Shown here: positions 454-16,690 of the stretch, piece after piece
Numbering within the stretch: the stretch's first letter is position 1
Layout: every line of letters starts with the position of its first letter
Assembly: GCF_030013595.1 (NCBI RefSeq)
Contig: NZ_CP122768.1
Source of the DNA: Escherichia coli
Lineage (GTDB): Bacteria; Pseudomonadota; Gammaproteobacteria; Enterobacterales; Enterobacteriaceae
Reading direction: 5' to 3' (one strand)
DNA: 64,000 nucleotides
Translations under genes and position numbers: made by a program
Notes under the pieces: model-generated
Databases searched by the model: none
What the model was told of the DNA's origin: nothing
The model's input: only the letters and a program-made list of their open reading frames with translations

Positions 454-528
<75 letters not shown>

Positions 529-531
529 ATA

Positions 532-607
<76 letters not shown>

Positions 608-609
608 AC

Positions 610-686
610 TGGACCGCCACCGGGGACTCGAACCTCGCACACTCAACTTAAAGGGTTGACGCTCTTTCCCGATGAGCTAGTGGCGG
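610..686 (-). tRNA. atypical tRNA-like gene, apparent anticodon UUU (Lys) or degenerate Arg-like
   Basis: acceptor CCGCCAC/GTGGCGG, T-loop TTCGAGT and 3' CCA are present, but the anticodon loop is CCTTTAA (C at position 33) and the T-stem has one A-C mismatch. Confidence 0.5.
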
Positions 687-687
687 T

Positions 688-763
688 TGGTGGCCCTTGC
701 TGGATTTGAACCAGCGACCTGGCGATTATGAGTCGCTCGCTCTCACCACTGAGCTAAAGGGCC
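688..763 (-). tRNA. tRNA-Ile2/Met, anticodon CAU (ileX/ileZ-like)
   Basis: 76-nt cloverleaf: acceptor GGCCCTT/AAGGGCC, anticodon loop CTCATAA, 3' CCA; close to E. coli ileX as recalled. Confidence 0.8.
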
Positions 764-973
764 GGGCGCAGGATAATAACGTTACAAAATCAATGTTGCA
801 AGCATTCAAAAATCACCTGGTTAAAAATCACCCTTACTTCCTCCACCAGCGCATTCACCATGTCTATCCGAGATAAGTGGCACAAAAAAAACCACATTTG
901 GGCGGGTTTTGTTTGCTTTTGCCATCACGTACAAAATCGGCAAAATATCAGATTTGCATAAAATATATGCCTT

Positions 974-1669
974 TCAATCTACTTTTGCAACACTTTGCTT
1001 TGAAAATGCCGCCTTTTGTTTTGAACGCGTTCTCATTACAAACAATAAAGCCCCACTATCCAGTCGGTAAAAAATGTGTTTCATTGCAACCCAGTGACGA
1101 GTAAATGTTTTGGACCAGTTTTTAGTTGTCACTCCCGCCAGTAATGCCAGCTCCTGGTATTCATAACCTTCCCCACCAAAAAGTTCTGCTTTTACTGCCT
1201 GCGCCGCCAGCCAGATTAATTTTTTCAGGCGTTCCTGCGTTTTCCCTGCAATTTTTCTGGTACCGGATTGAGTATTAAATTCGTTCCACGCCCACTGTGT
1301 TATCGCGATCTGATGCTCCCAGCAAATGTTTCCGCCGTAACACCACAACAACCAGGCTTTATGATGCTCTTCAAGAGACAGCACAGCCCGCCGCCATGAT
1401 GATGTCGAAAACTCAACCGGGCTGACCAGGGCAATTGATGAGCCTTTCGCCAGTGATTGTTTTCCCGGGATTGGTGGATTATCCCGCGTTATCATTTTTC
1501 CAGTCACTTCATCGCGGTACCGGATTTTTTTACGCCTGTAACGCCCTGTATCAAACATGGCATTCTCCTGCCAGGCTTCAAGCTGACCTTTTGTTGCCCC
1601 ACTCAAATCAGCGGTGGCGATAATGAGCTGCTCGCGCACAAACTGTAAATACTGGTTATTCATGCGCAC
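974..1669 (-). CDS. putative late-gene antiterminator (Q-like), 231 aa
   Basis: ORF directly downstream of rusA and upstream of the tRNA/late leader, which is the Q position in lambdoid phages; called by position, no sequence match to lambda Q recognised. Confidence 0.5.
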   Translation of the reverse strand: MRMNNQYLQFVREQLIIATADLSGATKGQLEAWQENAMFDTGRYRRKKIRYRDEVTGKMITRDNPPIPGKQSLAKGSSIALVSPVEFSTSSWRRAVLSLEEHHKAWLLWCYGGNICWEHQIAITQWAWNEFNTQSGTRKIAGKTQERLKKLIWLAAQAVKAELFGGEGYEYQELALLAGVTTKNWSKTFTRHWVAMKHIFYRLDSGALLFVMRTRSKQKAAFSKQSVAKVD

Positions 1670-2025
1670 TCCAATTCTGTGATTTTTATCCCCAGCCGCC
1701 CACCAGGAACGAGCTGACCGCGCACAATATTGATTTCATCAAGCTGCTCGTCGTCTATGAGTAGTCCGGCATGCGTCAGCGCATCCAGTGGTGCTTTCAG
1801 GATATTGTCCAGGTCACGACGACGTTTATCCGGTGGCTCTGCAATCACCTTTATCGCCAGCCTTCCGGACAGGTTTAATTTCAGTCGCTGCTGGCGAACA
1901 ATTAGCGCCACATCCCGGCGATAACGCTCGCCGGCTTTTGATACAAAATATGTGCTGCCACGACGTCGCCAGTAGGTGTTCACCGTCGGCGGGTAAGGCA
2001 AAACAAATTCTATGCGTTCAGTCAT
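1660..2025 (-). CDS. rusA: Holliday-junction resolvase RusA
   Basis: 121-aa ORF with RusA family signature (…RRRRDLDN…LDAL…GGRL…I…E…), typical size and position. Confidence 0.85.
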   Translation of the reverse strand: MTERIEFVLPYPPTVNTYWRRRGSTYFVSKAGERYRRDVALIVRQQRLKLNLSGRLAIKVIAEPPDKRRRDLDNILKAPLDALTHAGLLIDDEQLDEINIVRGQLVPGGRLGIKITELECA

Positions 2026-2026
2026 T

Positions 2027-3085
2027 TCATGCTTTCCACTTCAGGACACCCGAATTTTTCGCGTGCATTAAAAAACGAATCAGCAACAACAGCTGGCTGC
2101 CGTGTTTTTCTTCAAAATCTTTTACCCCAGCATGCAGTTCGTTATGGCATTTGCGGCACAGCGGAATAACAAACAAATCGTCAGCCTTTGTTCCCATCCC
2201 TCCCAGCCCATGACCAATGATGTGGTGCGGATCATCTGCCTGATTGCCACACGTCACGCATTTCTGCGTTTTTACCCAGCGCGTGTATACGGGCATCTCT
2301 TCCCGTTGTGGTTTCTGGCGCTGGAGATACTGAGCCGGAGACTCCGGATCAACGGCAATGCTGACCACCGTCTTTTCCTGTGGCAGGCTCTGTTGCTGGT
2401 GGACGTGAGGCGGTAGCACAATATTTTTTGTGCGCTGCTTCAGTATGCTGGTGGCTGTCTGCTCTCCAGGTACGATGTCGCTGTCGCGGTACACTGAGAG
2501 GATTTTTTCCGTACGTAATCCCAACGAACGACGTAATACTGCCTCCGGTAGCGCGTCCGCCACCTGATTGCAGACCGCCCACCAGGATAACTCAGCCAGC
2601 GATAATTCCCGCTCCTGCGCACCGCTTATTGCGTGACGGATGACGTCAATCATCCATGCTGTCAGGTTTTGTTGAGCAAGTTGCTCAAGTGATTCTGAGG
2701 TCTGGTCACGCAGCTGGTTGTCGCAGTGCCAGCACAACACCATCGCGCCGGTGCCGTAACGATGTATGACGGTTTCGCTGTGGTGATAGTCACCATGAGG
2801 CCACTGGCAGGATTTAACATGACGCAGGAGCCAGTCAGACAGTGCACCAGCGCCGCCGGCAGCACGAATCACCCGTTCGTCGCTGAAAAATGGCAGTAAT
2901 GATTTATCTTCCGCCAGCGGCTGGCGAACGGCAGGAACAACTCCGGACGGCAGACCACGCATGCTTTTCGGTTCCGGCTCCACCAGCACTCGAGGGTTAT
3001 GAAATACCTGCATGGATTCACGGCCCGGCTTTAGCACCACCAGCCCAAGTTCCGGTACCGGAACAGGTCGAAGCAATACCCGCAC
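2027..3085 (-). CDS. DUF968/YdfU-like phage protein with C-terminal Cys/His (HNH-like) motif; start uncertain
   Basis: 352-aa ORF; C-terminal CVTCGNQADDPHHIIGHGLGG…CRKCHNELH motif; same position as ydfU in Qin. Confidence 0.6.
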   Translation of the reverse strand: MRVLLRPVPVPELGLVVLKPGRESMQVFHNPRVLVEPEPKSMRGLPSGVVPAVRQPLAEDKSLLPFFSDERVIRAAGGAGALSDWLLRHVKSCQWPHGDYHHSETVIHRYGTGAMVLCWHCDNQLRDQTSESLEQLAQQNLTAWMIDVIRHAISGAQERELSLAELSWWAVCNQVADALPEAVLRRSLGLRTEKILSVYRDSDIVPGEQTATSILKQRTKNIVLPPHVHQQQSLPQEKTVVSIAVDPESPAQYLQRQKPQREEMPVYTRWVKTQKCVTCGNQADDPHHIIGHGLGGMGTKADDLFVIPLCRKCHNELHAGVKDFEEKHGSQLLLLIRFLMHAKNSGVLKWKA

Positions 3086-3834: not shown

Positions 3835-3933
3835 ACAAACAATACAAACAATACAAACAATACAAACAATACAAACAATACAAACAATACAAACAATACA
3901 AACAATACAAACAATACAAACAATACAAACAAT
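3835..3933. repeat. perfect tandem repeat (ACAAACAAT) x 11
   Basis: eleven identical 9-bp units read directly in the sequence; preceded by an A/C-only tract from about 3801. Confidence 0.95.
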
Positions 3934-4010
3934 ACAGGCGCATCGATAATTAATTAACTTATCGGGTTACAAGGTAATATAACTTCAGTTAAAATTATTA
4001 ATCTCTTATT

Positions 4011-4040: not shown

Positions 4041-4108
4041 AAGTGCGGGTGCTTTGAGGATGCCTGACACATCAGAGGTGGCGAGGGATTTCTCCCTCGC
4101 CTGGTCTC

Positions 4109-4264
4109 TTACTCCTCAGGTTCGTAAGCTGTGAAGACAGCGACCTCCGTCTGGCCGGTTCGGATTCGTACCTCGCAGAGGTCTTTCCTCGTTACCAGTG
4201 CCGTCACTATGACGGTTAAACAGATGACGATCAGGGCGATTAACATCGCCTTTTGCTGCTTCAT
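4109..4264 (-). CDS. hokD: Hok/Gef-family type I toxin (HokD/RelF-like), 51 aa
   Basis: hand translation gives MKQQKAMLIALIVICLTVIVTALVTRKDLCEVRIRTGQTEVAVFTAYEPEE; below the 60-aa cutoff of the ORF track. Confidence 0.85.
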   Translation of the reverse strand: MKQQKAMLIALIVICLTVIVTALVTRKDLCEVRIRTGQTEVAVFTAYEPEE

Positions 4265-4474
4265 AGCCTGCTTCTCCTTGACCTTTCGGTCCGTAAGAGG
4301 CTAATCTCTATGTGTCGCATAGATATGGCCTCAGATTAATGTTAAGCGTCTTGCAGGACGCGTAATGTTAACTGGGGCTTTTCTCTATCTGCCTTTTGGT
4401 GTTCATGCCTGAGGCAGATAGCCTCAAGCACCCGCAGCAATTCTACTTAACTCTCCTTTTCCCGCAAACCGTTT

Positions 4475-15154: not shown

Positions 15155-15433
15155 GTGATAACCATGAGCGAACAGTACCTGATAACGCTCGACGAGTGGA
15201 AACCAAAACGGTTCAGTCTCCCAATAACAAACACCACCCTGGTGAAATACGGAAAACTAGGATACATCGTTCCAAGACCACAAAAAATTCGTGGGCGTTG
15301 GCTGATAGATCGCCGGGCAGTATTTGTTGGACCTGGTGAAACAGGAATTGCGCCGGAAATTCATACTGGCGATGATGATGCACTGAAGGAGATTTTAACT
15401 CATGTCACCGAGGCCACGAAAAAACAGCACTGA
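15155..15433 (+). CDS. xis: excisionase (Xis)
   Basis: lambda-Xis-like N-terminus (…LITLDEW…RPQKIRGRWL…), directly upstream of and overlapping int. Confidence 0.7.
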   Translation: MITMSEQYLITLDEWKPKRFSLPITNTTLVKYGKLGYIVPRPQKIRGRWLIDRRAVFVGPGETGIAPEIHTGDDDALKEILTHVTEATKKQH

Positions 15434-16520
15434 CGTAGCCGGTCTTTACGAAAAGTTTGATCGCAGAACTGGCAGGGTTTACTACCAGTATAAAAACCCT
15501 GTGACTGGAAAATTTCACGGACTCGGAACAGACAAAGGTAAGGCAGAAAAAATCGCTTCCACAGCCAATCAGCGAATAGCTGCAGCAGAGGCTGAATATT
15601 TCATGCGCAAAATTGATGAAAGTCCGTCAGCAACAAAACGTCGGGGTATCAGATTAAAGGCATGGGTTGATCGATATCTGAAAATACAGGACGCGCGACT
15701 GAAAAATGGAGATATTGCAGCTACAACTCACAAAGAAAAAGCCCGAATGGCTGCATACCTGGTTTCCCGTCTGGGAAACCACCCATTGAAAGAACTGGAA
15801 GTAAGAGACTTTGCATTAATACTGGATGAGTGGCTGGATAAAGACATGGTCAGCACAGCGAGAGTAAATCGCGGATTATGGGTTGATATTTATAAAGAAG
15901 CACAGCATGCAGGGGAAGTTCCTCCTGGATGGAATCCTCCGGAGGCTACCCGTAAACCGATCCCTAAAGTAACCAGAGCCAGGCTCACCATGGAAGACTG
16001 GCAAAAAATTTACAATGCAACGCCTGAAAAACACTTTATCCGTAACGCAATGCTTCTTGCGATTGTTACTGGTCAGCGCCGTGATGACATTTGCCACATG
16101 CGTTTTTCAGATGTGTGGAACGAACACTTGCATATCACCCAGGGAAAAACCGGAATGCGTCTGGCGTTACCGCTTACACTACGCTGTGATGCCATTGGGA
16201 TAACGTTAAAAGAAGTTATTGATGGGTGCCGAGACAGAATATTAAGTCCATATCTAATCCATAGTCGGCACCAGAAACAACCGAAGCCGATGAGTAAAGA
16301 CAACCTGAGCGACTACTTTGCCAAAGCACGGGATCTGGCTGGGATAATTCCACCAGCAGGAAAAACTCCGCCAACATTTCATGAACAACGCTCTCTATCA
16401 GAACGGCTGTACCGTGCACAGGGTATCGATACAAAAACATTACTAGGACATAAAGTCCAGGCAACCACCGATCGCTATAACGATACTCGAGGTCAGGAAT
16501 GGGTTAAGTTGGTTATTTGA
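15402..16520 (+). CDS. int: tyrosine-type site-specific integrase
   Basis: 372-aa ORF with an integrase-typical C-terminal region (…HEQRSL…LLGH…TDRYND…), next to the chromosome junction. Confidence 0.85.
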   Translation: MSPRPRKNSTDVAGLYEKFDRRTGRVYYQYKNPVTGKFHGLGTDKGKAEKIASTANQRIAAAEAEYFMRKIDESPSATKRRGIRLKAWVDRYLKIQDARLKNGDIAATTHKEKARMAAYLVSRLGNHPLKELEVRDFALILDEWLDKDMVSTARVNRGLWVDIYKEAQHAGEVPPGWNPPEATRKPIPKVTRARLTMEDWQKIYNATPEKHFIRNAMLLAIVTGQRRDDICHMRFSDVWNEHLHITQGKTGMRLALPLTLRCDAIGITLKEVIDGCRDRILSPYLIHSRHQKQPKPMSKDNLSDYFAKARDLAGIIPPAGKTPPTFHEQRSLSERLYRAQGIDTKTLLGHKVQATTDRYNDTRGQEWVKLVI

Positions 16521-16570: not shown

Positions 16571-16690
16571 AATGCGTGGCCTAGTTTTGGGGAAACGTTT
16601 TGGAGAGATTTTGGAGAAAGGAAAAAATTGAATAAATTCAAAATCCTGAAAGTGTCCCGCCTTATGAATAAGAAGGTGGAACTCGAATGA
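16571..16690 (+). pseudogene. potB: displaced 3' end of potB at the prophage-chromosome junction (att region)
   Basis: reading frame ends …SRLMNKKVELE with TGA overlapping the potC ATG, matching the recalled PotB C-terminus; upstream codons are not PotB-like; potA and the 5' part of potB are absent. Confidence 0.55.

Follow-up and report, generated by a model that had tools for sequence, protein, structure and literature searches.

The open reading frame (ORF) at positions 974-1669 on the minus strand of the Escherichia coli DNA analysed here (contig NZ_CP122768.1; the whole stretch of 64,000 nucleotides is referred to as the window) almost certainly encodes the Q protein of a lambdoid prophage located beside potC, a late-gene antiterminator of the phage 82 type. 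The initial annotation had placed this protein of 231 amino acids in the Q slot after rusA and had called it Q by position only. Its coordinates were confirmed, with the minus-strand ORF being unbroken over 231 codons counted from GTG 1669, and the call made from synteny is now joined by full-length homology and by a complete, conserved qut-type site.

The profile search against the Q families returned the Q82 family. The protein matched Pfam PF06323 (Phage_antiter_Q) with E 2.8e-92 and 308.8 bits at a cut-off of 25, covering profile positions 1-217 of 220; the same model scored Q of phage 82 with E 6.4e-95 and 317.5 bits. A match to PHROG 304, 'anti-termination protein Q-like', was obtained with E 1.7e-108. 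Direct comparison with phage 82 Q (CAA63332, X92588), the founding member of the Q82 family, which is likewise 229 amino acids long, revealed 176 identical residues out of 229 (77%) without a gap (E 7e-132), and tblastn on phage records found X92588, where the protein is annotated as 'phage 82 Q antiterminator'. Identity to the 'Q82-like' protein of phage 434 was 74%, and proteins that are 95-97% identical already carry the Q annotation in phages and E. coli genomes. Among 511 relatives in IMG/VR, two were 100% identical. In a family alignment of nine sequences, with the window protein included, all 18 of the 18 invariant columns were intact in the window copy. The gene is an ordinary representative of the well-studied phage 82 type, in a family that counts thousands of entries. 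Phage 82 Q acts on RNA polymerase in antitermination and is stimulated by NusA (PMC4914094), and by homology the window protein would have the same activity.

The absence of similarity to lambda Q, remarked on in the initial annotation, was found to be correct. Three Q families have been described, namely Q21 (PF06530), Q-lambda (PF03589) and Q82 (PF06323), with no obvious sequence similarity to each other (PMC9388147). Lambda Q belongs to PF03589, which it matched with E 6e-58, whereas the window protein did not match this family; profile comparison of the two with hhalign was non-significant (probability 0.3%), and tblastn with lambda Q gave no match in the window. The best local pairing in the hhalign comparison covered the presumed recognition-helix region (TxxxWSxT) and was not counted as evidence. 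The Q21/933W family (PF06530) did not match the window protein in the Pfam search, and tblastn with 933W Q was empty in the window. Because Q82 is a family without sequence similarity to Q-lambda, no likeness to lambda Q was recognised at first reading; this lack is to be expected and is no argument against the Q call.

A structural model of the protein was built with AlphaFold from the nine-sequence alignment. The mean predicted local distance difference test (pLDDT) value was 71.9; most of residues 90-220 reached 80-94, and residues 20-44 and 63-86 were of low confidence. In a Foldseek search the top rank was taken by lambda Q (7UBN) with a non-significant E of 0.76, and the best structural matches of the model were two antiterminators, its fold resembling those of lambda Q and AlpA. 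The model lends modest independent support to an antiterminator fold and hints at a core that is possibly common to the Q82 family and other Q families. No solved relative, Q21 chains included, emerged from sequence searches of the PDB, for which both the single protein and the family profile with E up to 10 were used; a listerial Ply protein, the sole weak match (E 0.26), was dismissed as chance.

A protein lacking similarity to lambda Q, an NCBIfam match and a solved relative by sequence might be suspected to be a different regulator, such as a helix-turn-helix activator or repressor that merely occupies the Q slot, as the initial annotation had allowed. We consider this highly improbable, given that the homology is to the antiterminator family PF06323 and extends over the full length of the biochemically proven phage 82 antiterminator, that the best structural matches of the model are two antiterminators, that a conserved sigma-dependent pause element lies downstream (see below), and that the window holds no other Q candidate. 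The last point was evident from Pfam and PHROG scans of all plausible genes in the prophage stretch, which revealed no second antiterminator; the scanned genes included Cro, a repressor, YdaT, a DnaT-like protein, P, DUF977, DicB, an exonuclease, Xis, Int and several unknowns. In tblastn of the Q proteins of lambda, 933W, 82 and N15 against all 64 kb, the sole match was at 977-1663. A separate Q gene elsewhere in the prophage, which would have spoken against the call, was thus not encountered by any of these searches. Two adjacent genes are annotated as antitermination protein Q, 'ater Q_2' followed by 'ater Q', in the Citrobacter phage phiNP record (1-1296), where only the second was matched here.

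The Q gene and the elements used for locating its start and its upstream neighbours are as follows.

974..1663, minus strand: Q gene of the phage 82 type, 229 amino acids plus stop; the maximal ORF reaches GTG 1669.
1669..1672, minus strand: Shine-Dalgarno sequence GGAG, 5 nt upstream of ATG 1663, read from the sequence.
1660-2025, minus strand: rusA (PF05866), directly upstream of Q in the direction of transcription.
2027-3085: gene of a DUF968/HNH protein, upstream of rusA.

The start of Q is most likely ATG 1663-1661, giving a protein of 229 amino acids, rather than GTG 1669. ATG 1663 was preferred because of the spacing of the GGAG motif, because the ATG overlaps the rusA stop codon TGA (1662-1660) as ATGA, and because phage 82 Q and the E. 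coli homologues annotated by the Prokaryotic Genome Annotation Pipeline (PGAP) likewise have 229 amino acids (690 bp). On its 3' side the gene is followed by a non-coding stretch and then by a tRNA cluster. Its placement is that of a Q gene, at the end of the early-right/nin region and before the late promoter and the lysis genes.

The initial annotation had pointed to positions 770-973 as the place for a qut-like site and a promoter. Both are present; the promoter, however, begins at 990, inside the 3' end of Q and beyond that range. The late promoter PR' and its pause element are composed of the following features.

985..990, minus strand: -35 hexamer TTGCAA of PR', from the promoter scan, lying within the last codons of Q.
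968..984, minus strand: promoter spacer AAGTAGATTGAAAGGCA, 17 bp, where the Q-binding element (QBE) is expected; it holds the Q stop codon (976-974).
962..967, minus strand: -10 hexamer TATATT of PR', from the promoter scan and comparison with relatives.
955, minus strand: inferred transcription start +1, an A placed by register 7 nt past the -10 hexamer.
939..950, minus strand: putative sigma70-dependent pause element, TGaTATTTT (+6 to +14) followed by GCC (+15-17), a sequence match to the description of 82 pR'.
930..931, minus strand: predicted pause positions +25 (U) and +26, placed by register with 82 pR'.

In phage 82, the pR' pause element consists of a -10-like repeat that is near consensus and has an extended -10, of a GCC 'discriminator' covering +15-17, and of an AT-rich stretch; pausing occurs at +25/+26 with U at +25 (PMC5001585). 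With +1 set at A955, the window sequence has TG at +6/+7, TATTTT at +9 to +14, GCC at +15-17 and U at +25; a late promoter and a pause element in the 82 register (990-930) were thus found at the sequence level. The QBE is located between -35 and -10, and the 82PR' fragment from -31 to +30 bears the QBE as well as the pause element (PMC4914094). As judged from the same published description and from PhiR47_2, the Q of which is 97% identical to 82 Q and which has identical PR' hexamers and the identical pause element TGATATTTTGCC, phage 82 shares the -35 and -10 hexamers and the pause element with the window.

Across 76 close relatives, the PR' and pause region was nearly invariant. The same layout was found after Q82-family genes of 27-77% identity in phages of Escherichia, Klebsiella, Cronobacter, Hafnia, Aeromonas and Citrobacter, the shared order being TTGCAA, 17 bp, nATATT, about 13 nt, TGnTAnnnT, GCC or GTC, an AT-rich stretch and an intrinsic terminator. 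The -35 hexamer TTGCAA was invariant in the 82-like phage, 434, PPompW, ETEC1730 and distant family members, and in the five non-Escherichia genera the order of elements was still kept even though Q was only 27-64% identical. This cross-genus conservation is the strongest sequence-level argument for a functional site. Not every family member has this promoter-adjacent layout: N15 Q belongs to the family, and no PR'-like site was found after its gene.

The spacer at 984-968 is in the right place for the QBE, where the window Q would be expected to bind. Of its 17 positions, five differ from the 82-like spacer, and at least two spacer types were seen across the family: the window shares GATTnAA with the 82-like phage and 434, and the phages of Hafnia, Aeromonas and Citrobacter have AACAAAAT. 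The spacer types track protein subgroups, which may reflect co-varying specificity. Given these differences and the 23% of residues at which the protein departs from phage 82 Q, the window gene could encode a working Q82-type antiterminator with a DNA specificity of its own that is not interchangeable with phage 82 Q. We regard this as a serious possibility, if somewhat short of probable: the coding of the last Q residues (VD* versus LD*) dictates some of the spacer difference, and such a specificity would refine the assignment to the Q82-type antiterminators and not compete with it.

Downstream of the pause element, the late leader contains the following features up to the window edge.

884..910, minus strand: intrinsic terminator, the first in the late leader, made up of AAAACCCGCCCAAATGTGG and then T8; termination here would give a leader RNA of about 70 nt.
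773..801, minus strand: second promoter-like site, TTGCAA, 17 bp and TATTAT, 10 nt upstream of the first tRNA, from consensus match only.
454..763, minus strand: four tRNA genes, CAT (Met or Ile2), Lys-TTT, Thr-TGT and Gly-TCC, from ARAGORN, Rfam and homologue annotation.
351-337, minus strand: weak terminator-like site, from the terminator scan.
191-172, 149-132 and 36-21, minus strand: three strong intrinsic terminators, each with a T-run, from the terminator scan.
8-4, minus strand: ribosome-binding site AGGAG of the holin gene, at the window edge.

Between PR' and the late genes the terminator scan found five sites, as compared with 1.1 ± 1.0 in shuffled sequences. The leader RNA as a whole folded no better than shuffles (z -0.57), and no structured leader is claimed beyond the terminator. 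The three strong terminators lie within 170 nt directly before the holin ribosome-binding site, which makes for an unusually dense barrier for Q. In the collinear ETEC1730 prophage, the holin gene starts 6 nt past window position 1, and genes for a second holin and an M15 endolysin come next.

The 3' arm of the first terminator reads GTGGT in the window versus GCGGG in relatives, where it completes a CCCGC/GCGGG stem. Folding of the hairpin gave -8.5 kcal/mol in the window versus -16.4 to -16.6 kcal/mol in the 76 close relatives, which include a contig with a 100% identical Q. With this weak terminator, leaky expression of the leader and the tRNAs may occur in the absence of Q; alternatively, the weakness may point to decay. 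The latter bears on whether this Q82-family gene could be a relic that has lost its function within a decaying (cryptic) prophage, with either the protein or its site no longer controlling the late genes. A hairpin about 8 kcal/mol less stable than in the 76 relatives could be the outcome of relaxed selection, the late region is outside the window, and the related prophage PPompW_699 has an insertion sequence (IS) element just after its tRNAs. Decay is nonetheless unlikely in view of a full-length ORF that aligns with phage 82 Q free of gaps and retains every invariant family column, of identical proteins on other contigs, and of the intact promoter, pause element and three downstream terminators.

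Several points weigh against the assignment to a phage 82-type late-gene switch. The N-terminal third of the structural model is of low confidence, and its fold matches are non-significant by Foldseek E-value. NCBIfam yielded no model match for the protein. The start site and the pause were positioned by the phage 82 register, and 82 pR' itself was compared through the verbal description in PMC5001585 and the proxy PhiR47_2. With its five differences in 17 positions, the spacer as the presumed QBE may differ in specificity; the first terminator hairpin is weak in the window; and the late genes lie off the window. Set beside these, family membership, full-length homology and the presence, register and conservation of the cis elements are established here by sequence comparison, and start site, pausing, binding and antitermination activity are proposed by analogy with phage 82.

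On this basis, host sigma70 RNA polymerase would initiate at PR', which overlaps the end of Q, with a start near 955. Sigma70 would re-bind the extended -10-like element TGaTATTTT (+6 to +14), and the polymerase would pause near +25. Q, bound to the QBE within the spacer, would then load onto the paused complex, aided by NusA, and the Q-modified polymerase, travelling with Q and NusA, would pass the terminators at 910-884 and 191-21. Read-through would extend past the left edge of the window into the adjoining genes for holin and endolysin, and the lysis and morphogenesis genes would be switched on. Q21 and lambda Q use a 'nozzle' mechanism, which for the Q82 type has been stated as an open question (PMC9388147).

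The second promoter-like site at 773-801 is a possible tRNA promoter, which could allow Q-independent expression of the tRNAs from the prophage. At the equivalent place (4083-4111 of the compared 933W stretch), 933W has an annotated putative tRNA promoter, pT. The tRNA with the CAT anticodon at 688-763 (minus strand) was called tRNA-Met by ARAGORN, and its homologue in ETEC1730 was annotated as tRNA-Ile by PGAP; it probably represents an Ile2 tRNA with lysidine modification, comparable to ileZ of 933W.

Compared with phage 82, where Q likewise follows rus/rusA, the window lacks orf45/ylcG between rusA and Q, has a different leader terminator and carries a tRNA cluster inserted in the late leader. 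Close relatives include the E. coli prophages/phages PPompW and vB_EcoS-689R5 and WP_089622479 (PGAP 'bacteriophage antitermination protein Q'), with Q proteins 95-97% identical, the same arrangement of rusA, Q, PR' and tRNAs, and a near-identical PR' and pause region; unlike the window with its GTGGT arm, they have an intact CCCGC/GCGGG stem in the leader terminator. Their tRNA sets differ from that of the window as well, the set of PPompW_699 being Met-Lys-Arg. Lambda Q, besides belonging to another Pfam family with no detectable sequence similarity, is associated with a pause at +16/17 as opposed to +25 in the 82 type. The 933W late region follows the same plan, with Q, PR' over the end of Q, qut, terminators, the putative tRNA promoter, a tRNA cluster, a terminator and the late genes; its Q, however, is from the different Q21/933W family, its tRNAs are others and stx genes are present.

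The prophage part of the window extends from position 1 to about 16.6 kb, with the integrase gene at 15402-16520 and the start of potC, by homology, at 16687. The integrase, with Arm-binding and tyrosine recombinase domains, abuts potC, placing the prophage at the potB/potC end of potABCD, as in several E. coli strains. The early region of the prophage also contains a hok/sok type I toxin-antitoxin module (4109-4433, minus strand), composed of the following features.

4109-4264, minus strand: Hok-family ORF, the homologue of which is annotated hokD.
4262-4433, minus strand: sok RNA (Rfam RF01794, 108 bits).

Between a rem-like ORF and hokD, a perfect 9-bp tandem repeat of ACAAACAAT was found at 3835-3936 (11.3 copies, 100% matches), which yields spurious LYC-repeat ORFs on the minus strand.

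The Q82 family is without a solved structure, and the window copy adds nothing special to the question of the family mechanism. Three features deserve notice: the first terminator is degraded, a tRNA promoter may be present, and the modelled fold resembles those of lambda Q and AlpA. The map of cis elements, comprising promoter, pause site and terminators, is directly usable for reporter or in vitro work. The doubt about the annotation is settled in that the prophage has a bona fide phage 82-type late-gene switch; therefore, its lysis genes and any cargo of its late leader, such as the four tRNAs, should be under the control of Q.
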